From: Pseudoalteromonas tetraodonis
GTDB taxonomy: Bacteria > Pseudomonadota > Gammaproteobacteria > Enterobacterales > Alteromonadaceae
Length of the DNA stretch: 32,000 bases
Reading direction: 5' to 3'
Assembly (NCBI RefSeq): GCF_002310835.1
Contig: NZ_CP011041.1
Coordinates: 2,070,001 to 2,102,000, forward strand
Program-made: the position numbers and the translations under genes
Shown here: piece after piece, positions 8,944 to 23,271 of the stretch
Numbering within the stretch: position 1 is the first letter of the stretch
How the letters are laid out: each line of letters opens with the position of its first letter
Notes under the pieces: model-generated
Seen by the model: the letters and a program-made list of their open reading frames with translations, nothing else
Database searches by the model: none
Told to the model about the DNA's origin: nothing

Positions 8944-9978
8944 TTATTCGTCGCTAAAAATACCTACATAAGTCGCTTGCGTATTCGATTTACTCGCACG
9001 GTACATGCCTGTGGTGTTAAACGGCAGGCTAATATTGCCTTTTGTATCAACAATAATAACACCGCCTGTGCCGCCAATCGGTTTAAGCACCCCATTTATT
9101 ACTTCATCCCCGGCTTGGGCAATGGTTTTACCTTGATATTTTACTCGTGCGCAAATATCGCTTGCCACATTATAACGAATAAAATATTCGCCATGGCCGG
9201 TTGCCGATACTGCACACGAGGCGTTTTCTGCAAAGGTACCCGCGCCAATAACTGGTGCATCACCAATACGGCCAAAACGTTTTGCGGTCATTCCGCCAGT
9301 TGACGTACCCGCGGCTAAATTACCTTGTTTATCCAGTGCCACCGCACCCACAGTCCCCATTTTATAATTAGCGGGTAACGCCTTGTGCGCTGCTTGATAA
9401 TCTTTATTGGTGCTTTTGCTCGCCTCTAGTTTTTCCTTTGCTTTTAATAAAGCTTCATAGCGATGCTTTGTATCAAATATATTATTCTCTACTAAGCTAA
9501 CGCCTTGCTCTTTAGCAAACTCTTCTGCACCTTGGCCACTTAACATCACATGCACCGATTTTTCCATCACTAAACGGGCAAGTTTAATTGGACTTTCTAT
9601 GTGCTTAATGCCCGAAACCGCTCCAGCTTGGCGGTTACGACCATCCATAATAGAGGCATCTAACTCATGGCTACCATCATAAGTGTATACCGCGCCGCGT
9701 CCGGCGTTAAAATAAGGCGATTGCTCTAACACTTCAATGGCTGCTGTGACTGCATCAAGGCTTTCTCCGCCTTGTTCAAGTTCCTTATACCCAGCCTCAA
9801 CAGCTTGAGCTAATTTATCGCGGTAAGCTTGCTCTTGAGCAGGTGTAAATTTACTTTTTTCGATTGTGCCTGCCCCGCCATGAATCGCAATGGCAAACGG
9901 CGTGCTCGCACTCAATGCAGATGAGCTCACACTCATTAAACTACCGCAAAGCAGTCCTAGTAATAGTGATTTTTTCAT
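8944..9978 (-). CDS. iaaA: Isoaspartyl peptidase / L-asparaginase (Ntn-hydrolase, plant-type asparaginase family), secreted
   Basis: Has a signal peptide (MKKSLLLGLLCGSLMSVSSSALSA), the autoprocessing/nucleophile site GTVGAVALD, and TSTGGMT and GAG motifs. Confidence 0.85.
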   Translation of the reverse strand: MKKSLLLGLLCGSLMSVSSSALSASTPFAIAIHGGAGTIEKSKFTPAQEQAYRDKLAQAVEAGYKELEQGGESLDAVTAAIEVLEQSPYFNAGRGAVYTYDGSHELDASIMDGRNRQAGAVSGIKHIESPIKLARLVMEKSVHVMLSGQGAEEFAKEQGVSLVENNIFDTKHRYEALLKAKEKLEASKSTNKDYQAAHKALPANYKMGTVGAVALDKQGNLAAGTSTGGMTAKRFGRIGDAPVIGAGTFAENASCAVSATGHGEYFIRYNVASDICARVKYQGKTIAQAGDEVINGVLKPIGGTGGVIIVDTKGNISLPFNTTGMYRASKSNTQATYVGIFSDE

Positions 9979-10060: not shown

Positions 10061-10087
10061 AAAAAAAGCGCCCTGAGGCGCTTTTTA
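10061..10087. terminator. Rho-independent terminator downstream of the SapC gene (bidirectional shape)
   Basis: AAAAAAAGCGCC-CTGA-GGCGCTTTTT forms a GC stem with a 4-nt loop, and A/T runs lie on both sides. It sits 16 nt past the SapC stop. Confidence 0.7.
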
Positions 10088-10102: not shown

Positions 10103-10807
10103 TTACGCTTGTTGCGCTTTTAAACGTGCTAAACGTGCTACTTGGTGAGTAGACGTTAAGAAAGAATAGATAGGTGCTAAATAACCGCGTTTACGAAGCT
10201 CTAGAAAGTCTGCATCGCTTAGCTCATTTAGTTTTTTCTCATCGATAAGGTAAATACCGTTGATGTCTTTTTTCTCGCCTTTAATATCAACCGTTAGCGT
10301 TTGTGCTACTAGTAATTCTTTATCAGCAAGGAATTTAGTAAACGCATCAGTGACTTGTGAAAACTCAATGAACGATACTAACGCTTCTTTACGACGCTTA
10401 AGGTAATCAGTTTCTTCACCGTTTTCGAATAATGCATTACCCTCTTCTTCACCAACTAATGAGCTCGCTTCGTCAATTACAATACCAAATTGATCTTGCT
10501 CAGGGTGCTTTACTAAACCTAATGGGTAACGAGTCGTTGCCATAGGTGCAAATGCTGCTGTCCATTTGTCGCCATCAACAAATAAGTTTTCACCTGGCTC
10601 TAGGCCAAACATAGCAACCGCTTGAAAAGTACCTGTTTCGTTATTTTTAACAAAAGACATTGGAAACTCATTGGCGATACGCGCAAACTCGTGTGCTACA
10701 ACTGGCACTAAGTGTTGAGTTTTCATAAATTCGATATTGATGCCATTTTTAATTTTAGTGTTGGCATGTTTTTCGTTGTGTAAAGGCTGTACTTGTTGCT
10801 CCGCCAT
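10103..10807 (-). CDS. SapC-family protein (function unknown)
   Basis: The family-typical N-terminal half (HLVPVVAHEFARIANEFPMSFVK...AVAMFGLEPGENLFV...TTRYPLGL) matches SapC. No signal peptide is present. GGAG SD lies 8 nt upstream. Confidence 0.85.
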   Translation of the reverse strand: MAEQQVQPLHNEKHANTKIKNGINIEFMKTQHLVPVVAHEFARIANEFPMSFVKNNETGTFQAVAMFGLEPGENLFVDGDKWTAAFAPMATTRYPLGLVKHPEQDQFGIVIDEASSLVGEEEGNALFENGEETDYLKRRKEALVSFIEFSQVTDAFTKFLADKELLVAQTLTVDIKGEKKDINGIYLIDEKKLNELSDADFLELRKRGYLAPIYSFLTSTHQVARLARLKAQQA

Positions 10808-11013
10808 GTTACTGCTCCGTTATTTTATAAATTTGATTTTTTACTGTTAGTGCCCTAAGGCTAAAGGTTTTGGCAACAAAAAGGAAGTGAAAATTTTGTG
10901 GCAGTTTGTAGGATATTAATTAACAAAAAATTATCGTTGATTATTTCAACAAATAACCAATAAACGCCACTGAAGAAGAAATTCGTAAACACAATGAGCT
11001 CAAAAAGCGCCCT

Positions 11014-11041
11014 TTGACAACGCTGTCTTCGGTGGTATATT
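11014..11041 (+). promoter_or_regulatory. Near-consensus sigma70 promoter for the 2OG-oxygenase-like gene
   Basis: TTGACA (11014-11019), a 16-nt spacer, then TATATT (11036-11041). It lies about 60 nt upstream of ATG 11104. Confidence 0.5.
11015..11028. promoter_or_regulatory. LacI-type operator half-degenerate copy (TGACAACGCTGTCT) overlapping the -35/spacer
   Basis: 12/14 identical to the core of the perfect palindrome at 16103-16118. It keeps the TGnnAnCGnTnnC framework with a central CG. Confidence 0.4.
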
Positions 11042-11103
11042 AATTTTGTGCCTAAATAAAAAGTTCTCACTTAAATAAGCCCATCAAAAATAGACATTAA
11101 ATA

Positions 11104-11814
11104 ATGAAAAATTTAACTGTAAACCCAAACTTAGTAATTAAAAAGTTGATGATCCCAGGCACTAAACTATCAGCCTTCGTTGTAGATGATTTTCTTTTAG
11201 ATACCAATAGTGTAATGAATTTTGCCCATAACATAGCCTATTTTAATCCTATGTTTTCAGACAATTCTTTCTATCCTGGCATTCGCGACAATATGCCACA
11301 ACCGTACTTGAGGTTGCTGCACGCATTTTTTCAAAATGAAATACTGCCTAAAATAGACAATAAAAATTATCAAGAGTCTATTCTTCATAAAAGTTTACTT
11401 TCATTAGTTTCATGTAAACCGGCTAATTTAATTGTCGATCAAAAAGTGCCCCATATCGATTCATGTGATGAAAGAGACTATGCGTTTGTGCATTATTTAT
11501 CTGGTGAGGAACTCGGTGGCACCAGTATTTATAAATACATACCGCAAAACATTATTGAATTTAAAGAGCAACACAAACCACTATTGGCAGATATAGTTAA
11601 CGATGTTAAAAATAACCCTGATGAACATCAAGGCTATTTAGCGGGTACCACTAGCTTGTTTGAGCAGGTATTTAAAATAGATGCTAAATTTAATCGCCTT
11701 GTTATTTACCAAGGTAACTTATTACACAGTGCAAATATTTACTCTGAGCAAAGCTGCTTAGCCGATGCTAAAAAAGGCCGTCTGTCGATAGCCTCTTTTG
11801 CAAGTGTAAGATAG
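11104..11814 (+). CDS. Hypothetical protein with 2OG/Fe(II)-oxygenase-like HxD...H...RxS signature (possibly the DUF6445 family)
   Basis: H117-I-D119 (VPHIDSCD), distal H208 (GNLLHSA), and R226-L-S228 (KKGRLSIASF). Order and spacing are typical of double-stranded beta-helix 2OG oxygenases. There is no signal peptide. By eye the coding sequence is AT-richer than its neighbours. Confidence 0.7.
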   Translation: MKNLTVNPNLVIKKLMIPGTKLSAFVVDDFLLDTNSVMNFAHNIAYFNPMFSDNSFYPGIRDNMPQPYLRLLHAFFQNEILPKIDNKNYQESILHKSLLSLVSCKPANLIVDQKVPHIDSCDERDYAFVHYLSGEELGGTSIYKYIPQNIIEFKEQHKPLLADIVNDVKNNPDEHQGYLAGTTSLFEQVFKIDAKFNRLVIYQGNLLHSANIYSEQSCLADAKKGRLSIASFASVR

Positions 11815-11817
11815 GGC

Positions 11818-13353
11818 TTAGATTGACTGAAGCCCATACTGTTTAATTTTATTTAAAAGCGCTCTGTGATCAGGAAGCTTATTTATTAAATAGTGATCAA
11901 TCTCAGCTCTTTGTTTTAAACGCGCTAAACAGTGTGCCTGTTCTTTATCGGGGCTGTTAGACGCCTTAGTATTGTAATTCATTCCATAAAGTACAAATAA
12001 GAAGTTCTCTAGATAAAACACTTCAAACTGACTAAAAAAATCATCTCTGACTGGGGTAAACTCTTTCCACAAATTAAGTTTTTCTTTTAATGACGTGGAA
12101 ATAGTGTCTTGGTTTTTATTTGCTATCCAAAAAGCTGAATCAGTGCGGTCTGATATACAGTAGTGAAGTTTAATAAAATCAATCACCCGCTCCCATGCAT
12201 ACCCCATAGCATGATTAAAACGCTCTTCTAATTGCTCTAGCTGCGTTGTTGATGATGGGAAGCGCAACGTTAAAAATTTAGCTGAAAAGTCAGTTAATAA
12301 TATTGACGTTGCCTCTAATGGTTCTAAAAAGCCTTGCGCTAAGCCAAGGGCAACACAATTTTTATGCCAAAACTTTTTCCGGTAACCGACCCGCATTGGT
12401 ATTTTTCTGTAGGTAAGATCTTGCTTACTGTCACCTAAATAACGGTCAAGTTTTTCATGTGCCTGTTCATCCGTCATATGGTTATCTGAATAAACAAAAC
12501 CGACTCCACGCCTATTGGTGAGCGCAATATCCCAAATCCAGCCAGCTTGATGAGCGGTGGCAAGTGTATAAGGAGGAATAGCATCATCGGCTTTGGTTGG
12601 TACTTGCACCACTAATGCGCTGTTAATTAATAAACTCTCAGATACATCAACAAAGGGAATCTTTAACGCTTTACTCATAAGTAAAGATTCAAAGCCTGAG
12701 CAGTCAATATAAAAGTCAAACTCAAGCTCTTCATTGTTATCTGTAATAAGTGCAGCAATAGCGCCGTCATCGCCAAGCTTTACCTGTGTAACATGGGTGT
12801 GTATATGCTCTACAGAAAATTTTTCTTTTGCATTACAAGCAAGTAGTTGCGCAAACTTGCCTGCATTAAAATGATACGCGTAAGCCAACTCCCCTTCATA
12901 TTGAGCATTAGTGATATTTTTAGGTGCTAAGCCTGCCTCACAAATAACATGCTGAGAAGATAAGCCCTGCGCATAACTTTGACTTTTCTCTTTGTTATTT
13001 AACCAATAAGAAGTTAAATGCTTGGCATCATAAGAGCTTGGCACATCAAATAAATGATGAAAAAAGTTGCCTTCGCCATGTTTTTTCTTATCCATCCAGT
13101 TAATAAACTTTATTGACTGCTTGAACGTTGCATCACATTGCCTAATAAATTCATCTTCACGAATACCAAAGCTTTTTAGGGTATTCCTAATATCGGGGAC
13201 TGTGCCTTCACCGACACCAATTGGCGGTATATCTGGGGACTCTATTAAAGTAACAGATATACCTTTACGATTGAGCATCTCTTTGCCAATGTGGTTTGCA
13301 GCTAACCAACCGGCTGTTCCACCACCTACAATTGCAACTTTTTTTATATCCAT
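11818..13353 (-). CDS. Flavin-dependent 'tryptophan halogenase' family protein
   Basis: Has the N-terminal FAD fold VAIVGGGTAGWLAA, then GVGEGT, a lysine context ATFKQSIKFINW, GWIWDIAL (WxWxI-A instead of WxWxIP), and GFLEPLEATSI. 511 aa. Confidence 0.85.
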   Translation of the reverse strand: MDIKKVAIVGGGTAGWLAANHIGKEMLNRKGISVTLIESPDIPPIGVGEGTVPDIRNTLKSFGIREDEFIRQCDATFKQSIKFINWMDKKKHGEGNFFHHLFDVPSSYDAKHLTSYWLNNKEKSQSYAQGLSSQHVICEAGLAPKNITNAQYEGELAYAYHFNAGKFAQLLACNAKEKFSVEHIHTHVTQVKLGDDGAIAALITDNNEELEFDFYIDCSGFESLLMSKALKIPFVDVSESLLINSALVVQVPTKADDAIPPYTLATAHQAGWIWDIALTNRRGVGFVYSDNHMTDEQAHEKLDRYLGDSKQDLTYRKIPMRVGYRKKFWHKNCVALGLAQGFLEPLEATSILLTDFSAKFLTLRFPSSTTQLEQLEERFNHAMGYAWERVIDFIKLHYCISDRTDSAFWIANKNQDTISTSLKEKLNLWKEFTPVRDDFFSQFEVFYLENFLFVLYGMNYNTKASNSPDKEQAHCLARLKQRAEIDHYLINKLPDHRALLNKIKQYGLQSI

Positions 13354-13379
13354 AAATCACCAATAAAGTTTAACCTCGT

Positions 13380-13402
13380 AAAAAAGCCCAGCAATGCTGG
13401 GC
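13380..13402 (-). terminator. Hairpin + T-run between the TBDR and halogenase-like genes (terminator/attenuator)
   Basis: On the minus strand GCCCAGC-ATT-GCTGGGC is followed by TTTTTT. It lies 28 nt after the TBDR stop and 26 nt before the halogenase-like start. Confidence 0.6.
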
Positions 13403-13429
13403 CTAGGTTATTTTTACTCATTTAGCGTA

Positions 13430-16048
13430 TTAAAAACGCATTGTTACACCAAGTTTGTAACGTGCTTCACCTTCAAAACTCCACACTGGGAAGTCATTCA
13501 GTAAATCAGGGTTTGGTAATGAGGTAGATGCATCATTGTTACCCAACTGAACGCTGTCTTCCTCTGTTAGGTTAATCCCTTCGAAAGTAACATCTAAGTA
13601 ATCAGTTACAGAGTATGTTGCACTGAAATCTAGCTGTCCGTAGTCTTGATGCGCGCGGTTACCGTACCAACCTGGTGCTTCACGAATAATAAACTCTGAA
13701 CGCCAGTTATATGCTAAACGGGCAGAGAAATCATCATTTTCATAAAAACCAACTACGTTATAGCTGTTTTTAGATGAATCAGAGAATACCCCAACACGGT
13801 CTGGGTAATTCTCTGCTGGTGCTTTCGCATCTGAATAGGTGTAGTTAAATGAATAACCAAAGCCGTTATCGAATGAATCTTGAATTTGGAACTCAATACC
13901 TTCGATTGAACCACCCGTACCATTTGTTGATGAGCTTACTGTCCAACAGTCATATTGCTGAGCACCACACGGTGGCTCGCCGGCATCTGGGTTAGTCGTA
14001 TAAACGGGGATGTCGATACCAATTTGTTGGTTTGTTTGTTGTTGGGTAGAAATAAATGAGCTTACTTCTTTAGTGAAGTAAGTGACGCTTAACATAGCAT
14101 CGTCATCAAAGTACCATTCAACACCAATGTCTGCCTGGAACGCTTTAAATGGGCTTAAACCTACATTACCCGTATTTAACACTTCATTTAAAGGACGGTT
14201 ATCTGTATAACCCGCTAGATTACGCGTTGCAAATAAATCTGCGTAATTAGGGCGAGAGATAACTTGTGCTGCTGAGGTACGTAAGATTAAGTCGTCAGCT
14301 AAGTCCATAACCACGTTTAAGCTTGGTAAGAACTCACTGTAATCGGCTTTGTCTGTAGATAACGTCGAGTCGTAAACACCTTCATCACTTAAATCATAGT
14401 AATCTGACGAAATATCAGTTGATATGTAACGAACACCTAAATTACCGCGAATACCACCGGTGTCAAAATCAGCCATCGCATATAAAGCAAAATTTTCTTC
14501 TTCTATGGTGCCGTATGCTTGTGGACGTGCTGTATAACCTTCTGTCATTGCTAATGAATCAGCAATCATTAGATCCATATCAGGTTCAGGTATTACAAAA
14601 CCACCACCGGCAGTCACGGTACCAGGGTAGTATTCATTAGCATTACGTACAGGTACTAAATCGGCATTCACATTGGCTGCATTACCATCTTGTACAACTT
14701 TGTGATCGGCATATCTTAAGCCCGTTTTAATTGCGGTAATAACACCAAGCTCAACAGGAATTTCAAAGTCTAAATTTAAGTAACTTTCTTCATCTGAATC
14801 AGGGTTATATTCAGGCGCCCAAGTTTGTGGGCTGATGGTATCAGGTAAAATGCTAGCATCGTATGACTGGTTAGCTAAATTAAATCTAGTCACGTCGCCA
14901 GTCATATCAATAGACCCATTTAAGTCGCTATTGTTATTTGCAAACATACCATAGTTTGCCGTTGTTACATCACTGTCTGCGCTTGTTTTACCTACACGAC
15001 CTTTAAAGGTGAATAACTCTGAGTCATATTTCCAATCTAAGTCAACAGTATCAGACTTCATGCTTGCTTTACGCGCCCATGTTTGGAAAAAAGCCGTGCC
15101 ATTGCCGTCGATATTACGCGAAACACAGTTACCTGAGGCGTTCGTTTGTTCACATGAACCATCACCTGGGAATATAATGATTTGCGAGTTAGCATTGTTA
15201 GCATCTAGCTCTAAACTTGTATAAGTTAGACCTAAAACTAGCGAGTCTGATGGCTGATATTGCATAGCTACATTATACGCAGTACGCTCACGAGCTTGCT
15301 GGAAGGTTGTAGGTGCCATACCGCCACTCCAACCACCTGACGATTCAATACCGTTACGTTGATAATCTACTTCTGATAATGAACCCGCAGCTAAGATACC
15401 AAATGTTTCACTATCATTTTTCCAGCTGTACAAGCCAGAAAGCTCAGGATCTGTCTCTTCAGATACTGTACCGTAATCAGCTTTAACACTAGCAAATACA
15501 GTGTTTGCATCTAAATCTAGCGGTTTACGAGTTTTAACAATTACAGTACCGCCGATACCACCTTCAACTAGGTTAGCTTGAGATGATTTATAAACTTCTA
15601 AGCCACCTACTAATTCAGAAGGTAGTAATGAATAATTAAAGCTACGATCGACCGCTTGTTGATCGAACCAGCTAGTTGAGGCAACAGTATGACCGTCAAG
15701 TAATGTGCGTGTTAATTGTGCTGATGCACCACGGATAGATACTTGCTGACCCTGTCCAAATTGACGAGATACACTGACACCAGAAATACGACCAAGAGAT
15801 TCACCTACATCGCCATCAGGAAACTTACCAACGTCTTCAGCTGTTACAACATCAACAACGGCATTTGAAAAACGCTTGCCGTTTAAGTTTTCTTTATTTG
15901 AAGCGCGAATACCCGTAACTTGGATTACTTCAACATCTTCTTGAACTTTAGTTTCATCGGCTGCGAATGCAGCACCAGTGAACCCGGCTCCCATTACTAA
16001 GCCGATATTTACTGCTAATAAGCTTTTTTTAAAATTTTTAGCTAACAC
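13430..16048 (-). CDS. TonB-dependent outer-membrane receptor
   Basis: Has a signal peptide ending AFA, a TonB-box/plug (VEVIQVTGIRAS...), a long beta-barrel with alternating aromatic pattern, and a C-terminal ...GVTMRF. GTG start is preceded by AAGGGGA. Confidence 0.95.
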   Translation of the reverse strand: MLAKNFKKSLLAVNIGLVMGAGFTGAAFAADETKVQEDVEVIQVTGIRASNKENLNGKRFSNAVVDVVTAEDVGKFPDGDVGESLGRISGVSVSRQFGQGQQVSIRGASAQLTRTLLDGHTVASTSWFDQQAVDRSFNYSLLPSELVGGLEVYKSSQANLVEGGIGGTVIVKTRKPLDLDANTVFASVKADYGTVSEETDPELSGLYSWKNDSETFGILAAGSLSEVDYQRNGIESSGGWSGGMAPTTFQQARERTAYNVAMQYQPSDSLVLGLTYTSLELDANNANSQIIIFPGDGSCEQTNASGNCVSRNIDGNGTAFFQTWARKASMKSDTVDLDWKYDSELFTFKGRVGKTSADSDVTTANYGMFANNNSDLNGSIDMTGDVTRFNLANQSYDASILPDTISPQTWAPEYNPDSDEESYLNLDFEIPVELGVITAIKTGLRYADHKVVQDGNAANVNADLVPVRNANEYYPGTVTAGGGFVIPEPDMDLMIADSLAMTEGYTARPQAYGTIEEENFALYAMADFDTGGIRGNLGVRYISTDISSDYYDLSDEGVYDSTLSTDKADYSEFLPSLNVVMDLADDLILRTSAAQVISRPNYADLFATRNLAGYTDNRPLNEVLNTGNVGLSPFKAFQADIGVEWYFDDDAMLSVTYFTKEVSSFISTQQQTNQQIGIDIPVYTTNPDAGEPPCGAQQYDCWTVSSSTNGTGGSIEGIEFQIQDSFDNGFGYSFNYTYSDAKAPAENYPDRVGVFSDSSKNSYNVVGFYENDDFSARLAYNWRSEFIIREAPGWYGNRAHQDYGQLDFSATYSVTDYLDVTFEGINLTEEDSVQLGNNDASTSLPNPDLLNDFPVWSFEGEARYKLGVTMRF

Positions 16049-16102: not shown

Positions 16103-16118
16103 ATGACAGCGCTGTCAT
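16103..16118. promoter_or_regulatory. Perfect 16-bp palindrome ATGACAGCGCTGTCAT: LacI/GalR-type operator (NagR-box-like)
   Basis: It is a perfect inverted repeat with a central CG and fits TGnnAnCGnTnnCA. It sits 55-70 nt upstream of the TBDR GTG start. Confidence 0.55.
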
Positions 16119-16541: not shown

Positions 16542-16575
16542 TAAAAAAGGTCAGTAGCAAAAGCGACTGACCTTT
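16542..16575 (-). terminator. Rho-independent terminator of zwf-pgl
   Basis: On the minus strand AAAGGTCAGT...ACTGACCTTT forms the stem and is followed by TTTTTT. It lies about 50 nt after the pgl stop. Confidence 0.65.
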
Positions 16576-16627
16576 CATTAAACCATCAATACAAAGAGGT
16601 TTAGCGCACATCTAATTTATATTAAAA

Positions 16628-19049: not shown

Positions 19050-20696
19050 TTACTGCGTACGGTGTTGTTTGTAGTACGCCATTAAGCCCTGTGTTGAGCT
19101 GTCGTGCTCATTAACCACGTTATCGTCGGTTAATTCAGCTTCAATTTTAGAGGCTAAACCTTTACCAAGCTCAACGCCCCACTGATCAAACGAACATATT
19201 TGTAAAAGAATACCGTGGCAAAAAATCTTATGTTCATACAGTGCAATTAAACGACCCACCGCTTTTGCATCAACCGTGTCTAATAATATAGACGTTGTTG
19301 GGCGGTTTCCTTGATGAATTTTATGCTTTAGTAGCATTTCAATTTGCGCAGGCGTTTTGCCTTTGGCTGCTAAATCAGCGGTTATCTGCTGCGCATCTAC
19401 CCCGTTCATTAATGCTTCGGTTTGTGCAAAAAAGTTCGATAATAAAATATTGTGATGCTTATCAACGTTAACCTGTGGTTTTACAGAGCCAATAAAGTCC
19501 GCAGGGACAATTACATTGCCTTGGTGCAAACATTGATAAAACGCATGCTGGCCATTTATTCCCGTCATGCCCCAAATAATAGGCACGGTAGTGTAAGGTA
19601 CGGTTTGCCCATCAAAAGTGACGTGCTTACCGTTACTTTCCATTTCACCCTGTTGTAAATACGCAGGCAACATATGCAATGCTTGGTCGTAAGGTAAAAT
19701 AGCTTGCGAATCAAACCCTAAAAAGCTGGTATTCCATACACTCAACAGCGCCATAATTAAAGGAATATTCTGCTCAAGCGGTGCCGACTTAAAGTGCTCG
19801 TCAACTTCAAACGCCCCTTCTAAAATAGCTTCAAATGCTTCAAAGCCGGCATAAAGTGCAATAGGTAAACCAATCGCACTCCAAAGTGAAAAACGACCGC
19901 CAACCCAATCCCACATGGTAAATACGTTTTCGTCACTAATACCAAATGCCGCGGTTTTTTCTAAATTGGTGCTTACTGCCACAAAATGCTTTGCTATGGC
20001 GCTTTTATCTTTGGCGCTATTTAAAAACCAATCAACCGCTGTTTTTGAGTTGGTCATGGTTTCTGAGGTAGTAAAGGTTTTTGACGAAATAACAAATAAC
20101 GTTGTTTCAGGGTCAACTTTATTCAATACCGACGCGATTTGTACGCCATCAGCATTAGAAACATAATGAACGTTTAACGGCTTATCAACTAATGCTTTAA
20201 GTGCTTCAGTTGCCGTTTGAGGGCCTAGGTTTGAACCCCCTACACCAATACTCACTACATCTTTCACCGCTTTACCGGTGTAACCTAACCACTGTCCACT
20301 GCGTACTTTTTCAACAAAGGTTTTAATTTTAGCAAGTTCGCTATCGACCGCCTCAGTAATATTTTCACCGTCAACAATAAGCGGTGTATGGGCGCGATTT
20401 CTAAGTGCGGTATGCAATACGGCACGGTCTTCGGTGATATTTATTTTCTCACCGGCAAACATTTTTTCACGCCACGCTTCAATATCACACTCTTTAGCTA
20501 ATGAGATTAATTGAGCGAAAACTTTCTCATCAATACGTTGTTTTGAATAATCAAACAATACACCAGGAATGTGAGTAGAAAATTGAGAAAAACGAGAATC
20601 GTCTTGTGCAAATAAAGTTTTCAGATGTGTTTGTGCCATCTTTTGTGCACTATTTTCTAGTGCTTGCCAACTTACTAACTCAGAACGGCTCGCCAT
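19050..20696 (-). CDS. pgi: Glucose-6-phosphate isomerase
   Basis: 548 aa with PGI signatures (GIGGSNLGP, SKTFTTSET, GGRFSLWSAIG, ESNGK). AGGGGA SD is present. Confidence 0.95.
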   Translation of the reverse strand: MASRSELVSWQALENSAQKMAQTHLKTLFAQDDSRFSQFSTHIPGVLFDYSKQRIDEKVFAQLISLAKECDIEAWREKMFAGEKINITEDRAVLHTALRNRAHTPLIVDGENITEAVDSELAKIKTFVEKVRSGQWLGYTGKAVKDVVSIGVGGSNLGPQTATEALKALVDKPLNVHYVSNADGVQIASVLNKVDPETTLFVISSKTFTTSETMTNSKTAVDWFLNSAKDKSAIAKHFVAVSTNLEKTAAFGISDENVFTMWDWVGGRFSLWSAIGLPIALYAGFEAFEAILEGAFEVDEHFKSAPLEQNIPLIMALLSVWNTSFLGFDSQAILPYDQALHMLPAYLQQGEMESNGKHVTFDGQTVPYTTVPIIWGMTGINGQHAFYQCLHQGNVIVPADFIGSVKPQVNVDKHHNILLSNFFAQTEALMNGVDAQQITADLAAKGKTPAQIEMLLKHKIHQGNRPTTSILLDTVDAKAVGRLIALYEHKIFCHGILLQICSFDQWGVELGKGLASKIEAELTDDNVVNEHDSSTQGLMAYYKQHRTQ

Positions 20697-20971
20697 GTAA
20701 ACATCCCCTAATTTATTAATCTATTGATTTAAAGCGCTTTATTTAATTTTTTACGACGCAAAATAACCGAATTTTGTAAAAAGCAAAGCCCAATACTATA
20801 GCTTAAAAAGTCTAATTTGCGTTATTTTTATAAGCTTCGATGCAGATAATAGCGCAATTTTTTACTTTTGACACCGGTATCATAAAATTAAAAATTGAAT
20901 TTAACAACTGATCAGCCCTTCTCTTTAATGAAGATTTTATTAATTTCTAACTGATCCAAATTAAAGCGAGC

Positions 20972-21015: not shown

Positions 21016-23271
21016 TTAACCGGTTAACGCTAAACCACCCGATAAGTTATAAACACTGCTGTAACCAAGCTCAGTCAAATTTGCTGCCGCAATTTTTGAA
21101 CGGTTACCACTGCGACACACTAAAATATACTGGTTGTTTTTGTCCAATTGGCCTTGCGTAAGTGCATGAGCCATTCGACTTAAAGGAATATTTAAGGTTT
21201 TAGCTATGGGTACGTTTAGCAATGCGCTTAAATTATTAGCGCCGTGTTCATAAGGTTCTCGGGTATCAATTAAATACGCATTGCCCTCTACCAGTATTTC
21301 TTTTGCTTGGTTAAAACTTAATTGCGAAGTTTCTATAGCAGGCTTAGCATTAACATAACCACAGAGCGTGTTGGCTTGTGTGTGTTGTTGTAAATCTGCT
21401 TGCTGTTTTTGTGCGGCAAATTCAGCGTCATCAATATCACCTTTAATTAGCTTTTGTAACAATGGCGTTTGCTGCTGTTGAACAGCCCAGTTCATTGCAA
21501 AGCACTGTTGGTAATCATGCCCTGAACACACCACACTTTGCGGATTAAGCTCTGCTGCTAACATCGTCAAAGAATGCGCCATTTTCATTGCATCCCCGCC
21601 ATCAAGCGCGGTATTTCCAAGCCCTGCAGGTAAAATTAAATCACCGCAAAAGCAATACTGAACATCTCCATTATTCGCTTTTAATAAATAACTCACGCTA
21701 TCTTGGCTATGCCCTGGTGTGGCTAGCTTTTCGAGTACGTGAGTGGTTAATTGCAATGTGTCGCTATTCGTTGGCCAGCCTAATTTATCAACCTCTCCAG
21801 CGACTAAGTATTCTTTAAGTGCGCTGCGCATTAAATCAAGTGCGCAGTGACGTTCTTGATGCTCATGCGTATTTAAAATAGCGGTAATAGTTAAATTTTG
21901 CGTAGTTACTATTTTTTCAAAGCGAGGGATCAGTTCAATAATCGGATCGATAATAAATGCATGTTGATCATCTGTTACATACAACCAACTACATGCACCT
22001 TGGTGTCTAAATTGGGTAAGCCCTAAAGCACATACTTCTTGCAAAGGAAAACTGCTATCAGAAATCACTAAACAGTTAGCTTGTAATACCGTTTTAAGCG
22101 CTCTAATTTGTTCACATGCATCATCTATTTGCGCCATCGTAGCAGCAGGGCCAAATGACAAACGAATAGCGTTTTCACTTTGCCAGTGTGAGGCTCCCAT
22201 CGCATCAAGCACAAAGCTCTGCGTAGCTCCCGTGCTGCATGCAGAGCCACCGCTGACCCTAATACCTGCAGCGTCAAATAAATCAATAACTTCTTTACTA
22301 GTTAAATCGTTAACCGCAAAATTAAGCGTTGTGGGCACAGAGCAGGCAAAGTCATGATTAAAGGTAATACTTCCAAAAGTATCAACTAAGGCGCTATGGA
22401 GTTTATCCCGATACAAGTTAAGTACATCTATTGATTTAAAAGTCTCGTCTTGTTTATCTAGCAGCAAACTAAACAGCTTATTGAGCCCAGCTATACCAGG
22501 CAGGTTTTCTGTACCAGAGCGCATGCCACTTTCTTGGCCGCCACCGGCTATAAAAGGCGTGTATGGGCTGCCTTGACGAATATACAATAAACCTATGCCT
22601 TTAGGTGCATAAAGTTTATGCCCTGAAAAAGGCGCATAATCAATCGTTGTTTCACTTAGGTTGAGCTGTTGTTTGCCAAGCGCTTGTACACAATCAACCA
22701 TCCAAGTGACTTGGCTATTACGACTACGAATCACCTTTTCTATGGCGCTTAGATCTTGGTAAACACCGGTTTCATTATTAACGGCCATCGTGCAAATCAT
22801 CAAAGCGTCATCAATATGCTGAGCAATAAAGTCTAAATCTAAAATACCATCACGATTAACCGGAATAGCAATAATATCAGCGTTAATCTCAAGCACTGTA
22901 TTCCAATGCTTTAGCGTATTAGGCACCGCTTTATGCTCAGTTGCCCCATACAATAAAACGGGGTTTGGCTTTGTATGGTGTTTTGCATTAATGAGCGTCG
23001 ATACGATGGCGGTTTGAATCCCCTCAGTGGCACCGGAGGTGAATAAAATATCACCTTGCTGCGCGCCAATGACGGTACGGGCTTTTTGCCTAGTTTGTTC
23101 TAATAAGTGCTTGGCTTGAATGCCGGTTATATGAGGACTTGAGGGATTACCAAAACAAATTTGCATAGCATGGCACACCACCTCTGCAATACATGGCAAT
23201 ACAGGTGTGGTCGCATTTGCATCGAGATAAACTTGAGCTTTGGGTTCATCTGGCAATAAAAACTCTGACAT
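21016..23271 (-). CDS. Tri-domain fusion: class-V cysteine desulfurase (NifS/IscS-like) + metallo-beta-lactamase-fold persulfide-dioxygenase-like domain + rhodanese
   Basis: aa 1-390: LDANATTP, FTSGATEG, PLP-Lys SGHK219, and the catalytic loop SGGSAC345S. aa ~425-600: THEHQERH (469-475), TPGH521S, CGD544, SGH585DY (ETHE1/glyoxalase-II-like spacing). aa ~655-751: rhodanese with the active-site loop C719RSGNRS. It is one uninterrupted ORF. Confidence 0.85.
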   Translation of the reverse strand: MSEFLLPDEPKAQVYLDANATTPVLPCIAEVVCHAMQICFGNPSSPHITGIQAKHLLEQTRQKARTVIGAQQGDILFTSGATEGIQTAIVSTLINAKHHTKPNPVLLYGATEHKAVPNTLKHWNTVLEINADIIAIPVNRDGILDLDFIAQHIDDALMICTMAVNNETGVYQDLSAIEKVIRSRNSQVTWMVDCVQALGKQQLNLSETTIDYAPFSGHKLYAPKGIGLLYIRQGSPYTPFIAGGGQESGMRSGTENLPGIAGLNKLFSLLLDKQDETFKSIDVLNLYRDKLHSALVDTFGSITFNHDFACSVPTTLNFAVNDLTSKEVIDLFDAAGIRVSGGSACSTGATQSFVLDAMGASHWQSENAIRLSFGPAATMAQIDDACEQIRALKTVLQANCLVISDSSFPLQEVCALGLTQFRHQGACSWLYVTDDQHAFIIDPIIELIPRFEKIVTTQNLTITAILNTHEHQERHCALDLMRSALKEYLVAGEVDKLGWPTNSDTLQLTTHVLEKLATPGHSQDSVSYLLKANNGDVQYCFCGDLILPAGLGNTALDGGDAMKMAHSLTMLAAELNPQSVVCSGHDYQQCFAMNWAVQQQQTPLLQKLIKGDIDDAEFAAQKQQADLQQHTQANTLCGYVNAKPAIETSQLSFNQAKEILVEGNAYLIDTREPYEHGANNLSALLNVPIAKTLNIPLSRMAHALTQGQLDKNNQYILVCRSGNRSKIAAANLTELGYSSVYNLSGGLALTG

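Follow-up and report, generated by a model that had tools for sequence, protein, structure and literature searches.

A predicted GlcNAc-oligomer receptor and its companion halogenase and oxygenase genes form a hypervariable cassette beside a fixed SapC gene in Pseudoalteromonas

Comparison of the corresponding loci of 80 Pseudoalteromonas species shows that the mature part of a TonB-dependent receptor (TBDR), its halogenase gene or genes and DUF6445 or Cupin_8 together make up a hypervariable cassette, and that the adjoining SapC gene belongs to a fixed backbone. We tentatively interpret the locus, which lies in a window of 32,000 nucleotides of the Pseudoalteromonas tetraodonis genome, as the Pseudoalteromonas version of the omp_nag-trpX unit of the NagR regulon, in which a GlcNAc-oligomer receptor would be an exchangeable cassette together with a halogenase and DUF6445. 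The part of this interpretation that concerns uptake and regulation is very probable. That the enzymes have a receptor-matched target other than a sugar is a tentative proposal, and it sets our confidence in the whole. The features of the locus are as follows.

10063-10086, minus strand: terminator-like hairpin with T-run just 3' of the SapC stop codon (10-bp stem, 5 GC pairs)
10103-10807, minus strand: SapC-family protein, 234 aa, without signal peptide (PF07277, E = 4e-69)
10900-10999: left recombination breakpoint, near 10900 (identity to the related locus L010 drops from 95-100% to 33-58%)
11014-11041, plus strand: near-consensus sigma-70-type promoter of DUF6445 (11/12 matches; 63 nt upstream of the ATG at 11104)
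11015-11028: predicted NagR-type operator TGACAACGCTGTCT, one mismatch, overlapping the -35 hexamer and spacer of the DUF6445 promoter
11104-11814, plus strand: DUF6445, predicted cytoplasmic 2-oxoglutarate/Fe(II) dioxygenase, 236 aa (PF20043, E = 3e-56)
11815-11817: convergent stop-to-stop gap of DUF6445 and halogenase, 3 nt (GGC), without terminator (sequence read)
11818-13353, minus strand: flavin-dependent halogenase (trpX of the NagR regulon), predicted cytoplasmic, 511 aa (PF04820, E = 5e-136)
13380-13404, minus strand: intrinsic-terminator hairpin between TBDR and halogenase, 9-bp stem, loop AUU, U6 (folding)
13430-16048, minus strand: TBDR of omp_nag type, 872 aa, Sec signal peptide (Plug and barrel; TIGR01782)
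15883-15983: right recombination breakpoint, near 15983 (identity to L010 back to 90-100% beyond)
16104-16117: predicted NagR operator, perfect, TGACAGCGCTGTCA, far edge 69 nt upstream of the TBDR start codon
20869-20882: related palindrome TGACACCGGTATCA upstream of pgi (palindrome search)

A hypervariable cassette beside a fixed SapC gene

Profile searches placed four open reading frames in the families and at the exact coordinates given in a preliminary description of this DNA, and re-reading the sequence returned the same spacings: the halogenase gene starts 76 nt after the TBDR stop, the convergent stops lie 3 nt apart, and 296 bp separate the divergent DUF6445 and SapC genes. Isoaspartyl peptidase and hrpA genes form one flank, pgl-zwf-pgi the other. 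The four genes had been regarded as one island, but the variable segment is confined to DUF6445, the halogenase and the mature TBDR. SapC is 77-100% identical across the 80 species, including 25 that have no TBDR at the slot, and persists at 93-98% identity in species without the TBDR and both enzymes; it therefore lies outside the swapped unit. The hairpin behind SapC is symmetrical and could thus work in both directions. SapC belongs to a family with 6150 representatives at 50% identity, and a search of the PDB with its AF2 model (pLDDT 93) gave no fold match (best E 0.14, TM <0.2).

The breakpoints were obtained from sliding-window identity of a MAFFT pair alignment with L010 and from blastn pieces. 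Between positions 10900 and 15983 identity to this relative is 32-79%, and the right breakpoint falls about 22 codons into the TBDR gene, in the region of the signal peptide. Twenty TBDR lineages (at least 75% identity) occur among 52 loci. TBDR identity follows SapC identity only loosely (r = 0.24, compared with r = 0.78 for SapC and asparaginase), and in 45 species pairs SapC is at least 93% identical, yet the TBDR less than 70%. Each of the 54 loci in which a TBDR was called with confidence has a halogenase, DUF6445 and/or Cupin_8, and none of the 25 TBDR-less loci has any of them. Under the same predicted NagR promoter, the enzyme set ranges from zero to three halogenases, with DUF6445, Cupin_8 or neither.

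The association of receptor and enzymes recurs in Shewanella, Colwellia, Gimibacter and metagenomic loci with GH3 or three halogenases, and a TBDR lies within 10 kb in 7 of 7 DUF6445-anchored loci from other taxa or metagenomes. Iyer et al. described in 2010 a neighbourhood of TonB receptor, Trp-halogenase, SapC and a Syn9-gp52-like 2OG oxygenase, and also noted its sporadic distribution and lateral transfer (PMC2938197). The window holds the same four families, and the Syn9-gp52-like label fits its DUF6445, whose closer fold matches are cyanophage proteins (TM 0.63-0.70). The association as such is therefore not new. What our analysis adds is the hypervariability of the cassette at a slot with fixed SapC, the sharp breakpoints, the conservation of the terminator, the retention of catalytic residues, the DUF6445 assignment and the lack of a PDB fold match for SapC.

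Such a pattern might arise without functional coupling if the receptor diversifies under phage or bacteriocin pressure, or with niche glycans, and the enzyme genes hitch-hike in the recombining segment. The sharp breakpoints, the 20 receptor lineages at one slot and the conserved terminator would agree with this. We nevertheless regard it as highly improbable, since receptor and enzymes are found together in unrelated taxa and gene orders, Iyer et al. had come upon the association independently (PMC2938197), and the catalytic residues of the enzymes are under clear purifying selection. Against our own reading, however, linkage alone could let enzymes co-travel with a receptor under diversifying selection, and the cassette variants might simply be importers of different GlcNAc-containing glycans.

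The receptor and its predicted control by NagR

The TBDR begins with a Sec-type signal peptide, as judged by reading the sequence (...GAAFA followed by ADE), and ends in ...MRF. It scores 625 bits against the carbohydrate-type model TIGR01782 'TonB-Xanth-Caul' (cut-off 310), but only about 30 bits against the FepA, CirA and BtuB models. Its 65% identity to the TBDR of the Shewanella violacea nag locus and its regulon context suggest that it is an outer-membrane receptor for chitin-derived GlcNAc oligomers. The hairpin with T-run previously seen in the gap to the halogenase gene is well formed: the arms GGCCCAGCA/UGCUGGGCU, followed by U6, fold with -24.5 kcal/mol (z = -3.9), a value that none of 200 shuffles equals. 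A GC-rich hairpin with T-run occupies this gap in nearly all of the roughly 56 related loci listed, with stems that vary in sequence and retain self-complementarity.

LacI-type palindromes had been reported upstream of the TBDR and in the divergent spacer, and both were recovered. With up to two mismatches the palindrome occurs five times in the window against 0.74 expected, and none of 100 shuffles reaches five. Irrespective of receptor lineage, nearly all TBDR-bearing Pseudoalteromonas loci carry a box, perfect or almost so, at about 69-72 nt from the TBDR start, and the box upstream of DUF6445, where the promoter reads TTGACA, 16 nt, TATATT with TG preceding the -10 element, lies at the equivalent position in Shewanella, Colwellia and the locus L033. 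The palindrome upstream of pgi is kept in 40 loci, including the TBDR-less clade, with a 20-nt context identical in the locus L005; it could be bound by NagR or by a different LacI-type regulator. In Shewanella and Colwellia the motif also precedes nagK, hex and the LacI gene, and in Shewanella violacea, Colwellia and P. luteoviolacea it is found upstream of nagK and of the TBDR, between the divergent hex and DUF6445 genes and in the pgi/LacI region. Thus, the earlier guess of an amino-sugar context was sound. In Shewanella and Colwellia, the same four genes are part of the nag locus, with hex-nagK-nagA-permease on one side and the LacI gene on the other. The window itself contains no nagR gene. 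Yang et al. reportedly also dealt with the NagR GlcNAc/chitin regulon of Shewanella in 2006.

In S. oneidensis, NagR was examined by EMSA on the SO3514 upstream region, and derepression in the ΔnagR strain was 11-fold (Rodionov et al. 2011, PMC3223726). The regulon of this LacI-family GlcNAc/chitin regulator as listed by Leyn et al. in 2016 comprises omp_nag, the halogenase trpX, sapC and a Pass1-related gene (PMC5343134), the latter with the locus tag ATW7_01305 from a Pseudoalteromonas-type strain; tables derived from RegPrecise give omp_nag in 24 genomes, trpX in 24, sapC in 10 and pgi2 in 2. The window shares with this Shewanella/Alteromonadales regulon (PMC3223726, PMC5343134) the operator motif and the order of TBDR, terminator hairpin and halogenase, and its TBDR, halogenase and DUF6445 share 65, 66 and 65% identity with their counterparts in the Shewanella violacea nag locus. 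We observe motif and context, and by extension from the S. oneidensis data the palindromes are predicted NagR boxes; the TBDR is apparently under chitin-sugar (GlcNAc) control. Compared with that regulon, the unit in the window stands apart from hex, nagK, nagA, nagP and nagR, with pgl and SapC as its neighbours; SapC is transcribed divergently from DUF6445 and not together with it, and there is no distal second box. Glycan-uptake TBDRs under a sugar-specific repressor are likewise found in Xanthomonas CUT loci and Bacteroidetes PULs, but the unit in the window has neither a CAZyme nor an inner-membrane transporter or regulator next to it, and SusD is also absent.

These features bear on the prediction of Iyer et al. 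that the enzymes make a halogenated, hydroxylated, siderophore-like amino-acid derivative, which a siderophore-like TBDR would re-import as a private ligand (PMC2938197). Co-variation of receptor and enzymes would then prevent piracy, as in pyoverdine loci, where receptor and adjacent tailoring enzymes of close relatives are likewise replaced together between conserved flanks (PMC2938197). The receptor and enzymes here do co-vary as a cassette, and relatives of the halogenase brominate indole. However, the receptor belongs to the carbohydrate type, its gene is preceded by a predicted box of a GlcNAc repressor, and the unit lies inside a chitin catabolic locus in Shewanella and Colwellia. No scaffold-forming enzyme, carrier protein or exporter is encoded in the cassette or within 10 kb, which also agrees with the earlier view that this is not a natural-product halogenation pathway. 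Unlike a pyoverdine locus, this one has no NRPS or exporter and no apparent iron regulation, and its conserved promoter carries a predicted sugar-repressor operator. We consider both the private product and its role against piracy quite improbable.

The two enzymes and their possible targets

The closest PDB sequence matches of the halogenase are 9lu2 (E = 2.5e-139), 2pyx (2.8e-121) and BrvH (6e-75), and named Shewanella and Colwellia proteins are 58-67% identical to it. [quoted passage not shown] Its GTVPDI and HLFDV motifs resemble those of the non-tryptophan 'group C' (BrvH, Xcc, MibH) and not those of free-tryptophan halogenases, and it differs from the BrvH/Xcc4156 group in reading WIWDIA instead of WxWxIP, with the P of the motif replaced by A. 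BrvH, whose substrate site is open to solvent, and Xcc4156 brominate indole in vitro and prefer bromide. With these relatives, and with 9lu2 and 2pyx solved, the earlier statement that no partner of the TBDR has a demonstrated reaction went too far.

DUF6445 is, as judged by its sequence and its AF2 model (pLDDT 96), a bona fide 2OG oxygenase of the HxD...H/Arg type. H117, D119, H208 and R226 do not vary among 36 homologues, and the top PDB fold matches are OGFOD1, AndA, NO66, P3H1 and Tpa1, among them the protein prolyl hydroxylases OGFOD1, Tpa1 and P3H1. The N-termini of halogenase, DUF6445 and SapC are not signal-like on reading, as had been proposed. The terminator-less 3-nt gap between DUF6445 and halogenase was also confirmed in the sequence, and with such a gap the 3' ends of the two transcripts must overlap; in 17 of 29 related loci the stop-to-stop distance is -35 to +9 nt.

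The preliminary description proposed uptake of a compound, possibly an amino-sugar oligomer, and its oxidative tailoring. In such a model, the TBDR would import the amino sugar, and halogenase, DUF6445 and SapC would tailor it by oxidation, or break it down, in the cytoplasm. The predicted NagR boxes and the embedding of the four genes in nag loci speak for this, as do the SapC-nagB-nagA-nagP operon of Rheinheimera, which SapC heads and which has no TBDR, and three species in which SapC adjoins a GH20/amidohydrolase/PfkB cluster. Moreover, 2OG oxygenases in general are able to hydroxylate non-aromatic substrates. Flavin halogenases of this kind, on the other hand, are known for acting on electron-rich substrates, those characterised taking indole or tryptophan, and GlcNAc oligomers have no electron-rich site. 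The GlcNAc pathway of the NagR regulon (nagP, nagK, nagA, nagB) needs none of these genes, the enzyme set varies between species under one promoter and operator, which is unexpected for a fixed catabolic step, and a GH3/LacI locus outside the nag context likewise has a TBDR flanked by these enzyme families. We therefore regard tailoring of the imported sugar as improbable. Of that interpretation, the families, the LacI-type operators and the amino-sugar context hold, the tailoring fits poorly, and the lack of any demonstrated reaction and the membership of SapC do not hold.

Alternatively, sensing of chitin products could trigger the halogenation or hydroxylation of an endogenous aromatic compound such as indole, to serve as a signal or niche-protecting antimicrobial. 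The indole bromination and bromide preference of BrvH and the Xcc enzymes fit this, seawater being a bromide source, and DUF6445, probably also the halogenase, would be under NagR control. Joint up-regulation of halogenase and TBDR is also reported from Colwellia metatranscriptomes. Yet this leaves unexplained both the constant adjacency of a TBDR, at this slot and elsewhere, and the joint swapping with the mature receptor, and we think it improbable.

Our leading guess, although itself not a likely one, is that the receptor polypeptide, or some other exported protein, is halogenated or hydroxylated by these enzymes prior to Sec export; that they act on a receptor-specific ligand is a second option of low probability. 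In AAH/AIDA-I, TibC/TibA and HMW1C/HMW1, a cytoplasmic enzyme that lacks a signal peptide modifies the exported protein of an adjacent gene before export. Those enzymes are glycosyltransferases acting on adhesins. To our knowledge, no TBDR has been reported to undergo halogenation or hydroxylation, and we know of no halogenated or hydroxylated outer-membrane protein. A Burkholderiaceae chitin locus with only DUF6445 and TBDR, and SapC genes without any TBDR in Rheinheimera and TBDR-less Pseudoalteromonas, count against our reading as a whole, as may the P-to-A change in WxWxIP. In the TBDR alignment no Trp column is specific to halogenase-linked receptors, W127 and W240 being invariant with or without a halogenase, which speaks against receptor-directed chemistry.

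Taken together, we envisage that in the absence of GlcNAc, NagR, encoded outside the window, would occupy the two boxes upstream of the TBDR and over the DUF6445 -35 element, and that GlcNAc would release it. Most TBDR transcripts would end at the conserved intrinsic terminator, so that the halogenase, expressed by read-through, would be made at a lower level than the receptor. Transcription of DUF6445 would run towards the halogenase gene, with overlapping 3' ends. Because all catalytic residues are kept and signal peptides are absent, both enzymes should work in the cytoplasm with the FADH2 and 2OG present there. Since their number and type change with the receptor lineage under a constant promoter, operator and signal peptide, the enzymes would serve the receptor and not sugar catabolism.

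Gene layout and predicted functions

ORF positions and profile matches confirmed four genes of the families that the preliminary description had placed in this island; their neighbours are hrpA and a homologue of isoaspartyl peptidases at one end and pgl-zwf-pgi at the other.

Genes of the locus (coordinates, strand, profile match)
10103-10807, minus strand: SapC (PF07277, E = 4e-69, 232.9 bits against a cut-off of 28.9)
11104-11814, plus strand: DUF6445, a predicted 2OG/Fe(II) dioxygenase (PF20043, E = 3e-56)
11818-13353, minus strand: halogenase of the trpX type (Trp_halogenase, PF04820, E = 5e-136)
13430-16048, minus strand: TonB-dependent receptor (TBDR) of the omp_nag type (Plug PF07715, 1e-15; barrel PF00593, 1e-32)

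Reading of the DNA likewise bore out their spacing, with 76 nt from the TBDR stop to the halogenase start, a 296-bp divergent spacer and 3 nt (GGC) between the convergent stop codons of DUF6445 and the halogenase. The hairpin claimed for the 76-nt gap comprises a 9-bp stem, a 3-nt loop and a U6 tail (-24.5 kcal/mol, z = -3.9); it was missed by a simple terminator scan and recovered by folding and locus comparison. As judged by eye, the receptor carries a Sec-type signal peptide and the three soluble proteins lack one, as had been proposed. The finding is thus real and was correctly described, apart from two statements: relatives of the halogenase, namely BrvH and Xanthomonas enzymes, do have in vitro chemistry, where no demonstrated reaction had been assumed for any partner, and the locus is not a single four-gene island, as SapC belongs to a conserved backbone and stays put while the other three genes vary.

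The 579-bp region upstream of the TBDR contains short ORFs only (33 and 43 codons), and an Rfam search of the window returned no RNA family. Directly 3' of the pgl stop codon lies a hairpin with a T-run (GGTCAGT…ACTGACC, then T6; 16549-16583, minus strand), which probably terminates the pgi-zwf-pgl operon, so that the TBDR would have its own promoter within the 579-bp spacer. At the other end, the gene at 8944-9978 (minus strand) encodes an isoaspartyl-peptidase/EcAIII-like protein with an apparent signal peptide (MKKSLLLGLLCGSLMSVSSSALSAS) and adjoins SapC in nearly all of 80 related loci. Its reading as a glycosylasparaginase acting on the GlcNAc-Asn link was rejected (isoaspartyl peptidase/EcAIII 5.5e-89, glycosylasparaginases about 3e-39). 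The lowest G+C content of the window falls on the DUF6445 region (0.346 at 11001-12000, against about 0.40-0.45 in the flanks), which is consistent with a foreign origin of the segment formed by DUF6445, the halogenase and the mature TBDR, hereafter the cassette.

The receptor scores 625 bits with the NCBIfam model TIGR01782 'TonB-Xanth-Caul' (cut-off 310) and only about 30 bits with the models of the siderophore and B12 receptors FepA, CirA and BtuB. It combines the Plug domain and 22-strand barrel of the TIGR01782 subfamily with a signal peptide (…GAAFA-ADETK), a TonB-box-like stretch (DVEVIQVTG) and a C-terminal aromatic residue (…GVTMRF), all three read by eye from the translation. Judging from its 65% identity to the TBDR of a Shewanella nag locus and from the NagR control of SO3514, the omp_nag of S. 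oneidensis, it is predicted to transport chitooligosaccharides.

Solved relatives of the halogenase in a PDB sequence search include 9lu2 (2.5e-139), 2pyx (2.8e-121), BrvH (6e-75) and Xcc4156 (8e-64); true tryptophan halogenases match at about 1e-80. Literature searches found nothing relevant on the entries 9lu2, 9ltb and 9luq and no paper pairing 'tryptophan halogenase' with CAZyme. The protein has the FAD motif G10-x-G12-x-x-G15, K78 within ATFKQS and the conserved glutamate stretch FLEPLEATS, and GxGxxG, K78, W272, W274, I276, E344 and E347 are kept in 64-67 of the 67 halogenases of the analysed loci; equivalence to PrnA (K79, E346; BrvH K83) was assigned by motif identity and through the 9lu2 and 2pyx alignments, not by direct alignment to PrnA. 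The WxWxIP region reads W272-I-W274-D-I276-A277; 66-67 of the 67 proteins keep both tryptophans and the isoleucine, and the motif ends in G, A or D in 58 of them and in P in just 7. The stretches GTVPDI and HLFDV of the window protein are similar to those of group C (ATIPTI/HPFGL, ATMPNI/HSFDS) and not ATFS[DT][IV]/HPFE[QR]. As the free-tryptophan motifs of Trp 5/6/7-halogenases are absent, we file it as a halogenase and not as a tryptophan halogenase. Halogenation dependent on halide, O2 and FADH2 is predicted by analogy to relatives, the only proteins in which it has been shown: BrvH, with a solvent-open substrate site, converts indole to 3-bromoindole in vitro (BrvH paper), and the Xanthomonas (Xcc) halogenases performed bromination only, likewise in vitro.

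DUF6445 is 95% identical to a protein from the P. tetraodonis group and has no PDB relative by sequence search. Across 36 sequences of 24-81% identity, H117, D119, H208 and R226 are invariant, corresponding to an HxD/E…H triad and the arginine that contacts the C5 carboxylate of 2OG in such enzymes. Its AF2 model (pLDDT 96.2, pTM 0.93) has as top PDB fold matches in Foldseek 2OG/Fe(II)-type oxygenases, first of all the protein prolyl hydroxylase OGFOD1 (1.8e-5), with Tpa1 and P3H1 also among them. Cyanophage proteins are nearer by fold (TM 0.63-0.70), which fits the label 'Syn9-gp52-like'. With triad, arginine and a modelled double-stranded beta-helix, DUF6445 has the features expected of a 2OG/Fe(II) dioxygenase.

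SapC is 100% identical to the SapC of a Pseudoalteromonas MAG and belongs to a family of about 6,150 clusters/representatives at 50% identity. Its model is confident (pLDDT 93) and has no PDB relative by sequence or by fold. An assignment as a cupin or another enzyme was rejected, since a confident model has no PDB fold match and the invariant residues (H14, E40, N74 etc.) suggest no known active site. No paper came up in a literature search for SapC, DUF6445, PF07277 and PF20043. SapC orthologues with 46-52% identity are found in Rheinheimera (locus L096, 9001-13228), where SapC heads a SapC-nagB(SIS)-nagA-MFS operon with no TBDR, and in Microbulbifer (locus L095, 6076-9717), where zwf-pgl-eda-gap-pyk is followed by TBDR-SapC. 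These contexts suggest that, even where no halogenase is present, this SapC subgroup goes with GlcNAc and central sugar metabolism. The idea that SapC stands in for the missing nagK of the Rheinheimera operon was dropped, as its conserved residues include no nucleotide-binding motif.

Predicted operators and regulation by NagR

Palindromes had been claimed upstream of the TBDR and in the divergent spacer, and both are present. The motif TGACANCGNTGTCA occurs perfectly at 16104-16117 and with one mismatch at 11015-11028 and 20869-20882; in total, the window holds five matches with at most two mismatches, where 0.74 would be expected. In a near-consensus promoter of DUF6445 (TTGACA, 16 nt, TATATT, with TG), the -35 hexamer and spacer are overlapped by the box at 11015-11028. 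Three related loci (L001, L003 and L005) have perfect boxes of this type ahead of nagK, hex, DUF6445, the TBDR and pgi/LacI. In Shewanella violacea and a Colwellia, the hex/DUF6445 divergent region holds two perfect copies, and further perfect copies precede nagK and the TBDR and lie in the stretch that separates pgi from the LacI gene. In nearly every TBDR-bearing Pseudoalteromonas locus, the TBDR start is preceded at about 69-72 nt by a box that is perfect or nearly so, and usually a second one lies about 385 nt upstream; the 579-bp spacer of the window has one box only, while most relatives have two. From motif and context in related nag loci, the window palindromes are predicted to be operators of NagR, the LacI-family repressor of GlcNAc and chitin genes.

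This assignment agrees with published regulons, in whose NagR tables omp_nag is listed for 24 genomes, trpX ('tryptophan halogenase') for 24, sapC for 10 and pgi2 for 2, along with a 'Pass1-related protein' (locus tag ATW7_01305) in the GlcNAc regulon (Leyn et al. 2016, PMC5343134, Table S3). In S. oneidensis, NagR binds upstream of omp_nag (SO3514) by EMSA, GlcNAc relieves binding as tested on a nagK fragment, and omp_nag is up 11-fold in a nagR deletion (Rodionov et al. 2011, PMC3223726). GlcNAc-dependent derepression, demonstrated in S. oneidensis only, is predicted for the window locus by analogy. SapC in Pseudoalteromonas has its own promoter and terminator with no box near the promoter and thus may not be co-regulated with the cassette.

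Profile searches of the ORFs found no LacI/NagR gene within the 32-kb window. A LacI gene adjoins pgi in four related loci (L005, L045, L056 and L058), and in a P. luteoviolacea locus syntenic with the window it diverges from pgi; the pgi-proximal variant site of that locus equals the window's over 20 nt. This variant, TGACACCGGTATCA (20869-20882), lies upstream of pgi (19050-20696, minus strand) and is kept in 40 related loci including a TBDR-less clade, with a perfect NagR box beside it in some loci only, among them those with a LacI gene next to pgi. Given this distribution, TGACACCGGTATCA may belong to another LacI-type regulator and not to NagR. In the clade of the window, the position of the LacI gene is taken by a gene (21016-23271, minus strand) for a 751-aa fusion of a NifS/IscS-like cysteine desulfurase, a metallo-beta-lactamase-fold (GloB-like) domain and a rhodanese; related species have a 755-aa ORF at the same pgi-adjoining position.

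Taken together, the uptake and regulatory part of the mechanism is well supported by comparison and by the Shewanella experiments: NagR would repress, GlcNAc would induce and the TBDR would bring in chitin-derived oligomers. The terminator in the 76-nt gap would hold the halogenase below the receptor level, and DUF6445 would be transcribed from its own promoter, occluded by NagR.

A variable cassette at a fixed chromosomal slot

A genome scan with a SapC alignment found the orthologous slot between pgl and SapC in 80 species, all of them Pseudoalteromonas. SapC, asparaginase, hrpA and pgl-zwf-pgi are conserved across these loci, and the pgl-SapC interval varies.

Content of the slot in 80 Pseudoalteromonas loci
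Nothing (SapC still 77-98% identical to that of the window): 25 loci
TBDR, halogenase, DUF6445: 20 loci
TBDR, Cupin_8, second SapC: 9 loci
TBDR and one halogenase: 8 loci
TBDR and two halogenases: 8 loci
TBDR, two halogenases, DUF6445, Cupin_8: 5 loci
Rarer forms: remaining loci

Oxidative enzymes are present in 54 of 54 loci with a confidently called TBDR and in 0 of 25 TBDR-less loci; one further locus (L084) has three halogenases and a partial TBDR match only. At an identity of at least 75%, the receptors fall into 20 lineages. Receptor identity follows backbone identity poorly (r = 0.24, against r = 0.78 for SapC and asparaginase), and 45 species pairs with SapC at least 93% identical have receptors less than 70% identical.

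The closest view of an exchange comes from L010, the locus of MAG Pseudoalteromonas sp. M30B23, whose flanks match the window with 95-100% nucleotide identity and whose counterpart of 10900-15983 matches with only 32-79%. The exchanged segment thus comprises the DUF6445 promoter, DUF6445, the halogenase and the mature receptor, while the TBDR promoter, operator, 5' UTR and signal peptide were not exchanged, nor was SapC. One breakpoint falls within the signal-peptide codons of the TBDR. The proteins of the two cassettes share 58% (TBDR), 53% (halogenase) and 40% (DUF6445) identity. The TBDR of L010 is divided between two ORFs, one of 100 aa and one of 763 aa, reflecting either a frameshift or a MAG assembly error.

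TBDR, halogenase and DUF6445 of the window are 65, 66 and 65% identical to those of Shewanella violacea, compared with 36-65, 40-70 and 29-62% for slot-mates of their own genus, which places the cassette nearer to Shewanella violacea than to almost all Pseudoalteromonas slot-mates. The P. tetraodonis group has a cassette of this type, in which the 3-nt and 76-nt gaps are identical. Two features are kept across lineages. One is the terminator hairpin 3' of the TBDR, with stems that differ in sequence and remain self-complementary, which Shewanella and Colwellia have as well. The other is a convergent halogenase/DUF6445 junction that is very short or overlapping: in 17 of 29 loci it measures between -35 and +9 nt.

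The gene combination itself is not new: neighbourhoods in which a TonB-class receptor and SapC accompany one to three tryptophan halogenases were published in 2010 (Iyer et al. 2010, PMC2938197), and an assignment to the NagR regulon was likewise already in print. Neither halogenase nor SapC nor Pass1 is mentioned in the main text of Blanvillain 2007. What is newly documented is the behaviour of the cassette at a fixed, operator-bearing slot. Breadth beyond Pseudoalteromonas was covered by ten contig look-ups outside the SapC-scan set and by Iyer et al.; for the Xanthomonadales and Caulobacterales named in the preliminary description, recurrence of the association is taken from the literature. 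In Shewanella violacea and Colwellia, the four families lie inside a chitin locus adjoining permease-nagA-nagK-hex(GH20), where DUF6445-SapC point away from hex and towards halogenase-TBDR, with a LacI gene beyond these and, in Colwellia, also pgi. The combination that defines a PUL/CUT (TBDR, CAZyme, inner-membrane transporter and regulator) does not occur within the window, unlike in this orthologous unit, which has GH20, nagK, nagA and the LacI gene, and an MFS transporter in Colwellia. A Burkholderiaceae chitin locus (GH18, nagK, GntR, nagA, SIS, GH3, MFS, HGSNAT) ends with DUF6445 convergent on a TBDR. One metagenomic locus combines a TBDR with three halogenases, two DUF6445 and Cupin_8, and another has LacI and GH3 followed by same-strand TBDR-SapC-Cupin_8-halogenase-DUF6445. 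In the alphaproteobacterium Gimibacter, LacI and glucokinase precede TBDR-SapC-halogenase-halogenase-GH20.

In P. caenipelagi and two other species (L050, 71-9828; L062; L063), a catabolic-type cluster precedes SapC, encoding a D-Ser-dehydratase-like protein, RpiR, an amidohydrolase, an SSF transporter, a PfkB kinase, GH20 and an SMP-30 lactonase. We take this cluster to resemble the published catabolic cluster for oxidised chitooligosaccharides (GlcNAc1A).

Possible targets of the cassette enzymes

By their conserved residues, lack of signal peptides and gene context, the enzymes appear catalytically intact, cytoplasmic and tied to the receptor, not to the sugar pathway. A less likely alternative is that they tailor the imported compound. 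The GlcNAc pathway in the NagR regulon list is complete without halogenase, DUF6445 or SapC. In the literature consulted, the characterised enzymes of the halogenase's kind use indoles as substrates, and nothing comparable is present in GlcNAc oligomers. In addition, the enzyme set shifts with receptor lineage while promoter and operator stay unchanged. On these grounds we prefer a target that is matched to the receptor and is not a sugar. Mere hitch-hiking of the enzyme genes would be in line with exchange of the segment as a unit; it has to be set against the recurrence of the association in unrelated gene orders and taxa and the conservation of catalytic residues.

Two further explanations invoke a small molecule. 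The enzymes could make a private ligand for the receptor, close to the earlier prediction of a pathway for a halogenated siderophore-like compound (Iyer et al. 2010, PMC2938197), or a halogenated metabolite triggered by glycan, as the predicted NagR control and the indole chemistry of BrvH would allow. Among the window ORFs and the related loci there is no scaffold-forming enzyme, carrier protein or exporter of a natural-product cluster, and the receptor itself scores poorly with siderophore models.

Our leading guess for the receptor-matched target, though still of low probability, is that the halogenase and the 2OG hydroxylases (DUF6445, Cupin_8) modify the co-inherited TBDR, or another exported protein, in the cytoplasm ahead of Sec export. 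A precedent is provided by autotransporters that are glycosylated in the cytoplasm by enzymes of adjacent genes. In that case receptor and enzymes of a cassette would form matched pairs by which surface chemistry is diversified, e.g. for tuning ligand capture or escaping phages and bacteriocins. A receptor tryptophan as the site of halogenation was rejected, as no tryptophan column is specific to halogenase-linked TBDRs; columns H449, Y541 and Y602 do differ with halogenase linkage, in a comparison whose halogenase-free group is largely one lineage.

Halogenase-like genes beside sugar-type TonB receptors are very common, with more than 7,900 homologues scored for the window halogenase, and their routine annotation as 'tryptophan halogenase' leads to false positives in natural-product mining. 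The behaviour of the cassette at a fixed slot opens a practical route to the biochemistry of these enzymes, and the locus is a clean experimental handle, with a predicted inducer (GlcNAc) and repressor by analogy to Shewanella NagR, a small cassette, natural variants with 0-3 halogenases at one slot and close relatives differing only there. If the enzymes make brominated small molecules on chitin, breakdown of the polymer would be tied to chemical defence. Receptor modification, if true, would be the first case of a halogenated or hydroxylated bacterial outer-membrane protein and would explain the widespread gene association. If the enzymes act on the receptor or on a receptor-specific ligand, this would revise the view of glycan uptake in marine and plant-associated Proteobacteria.
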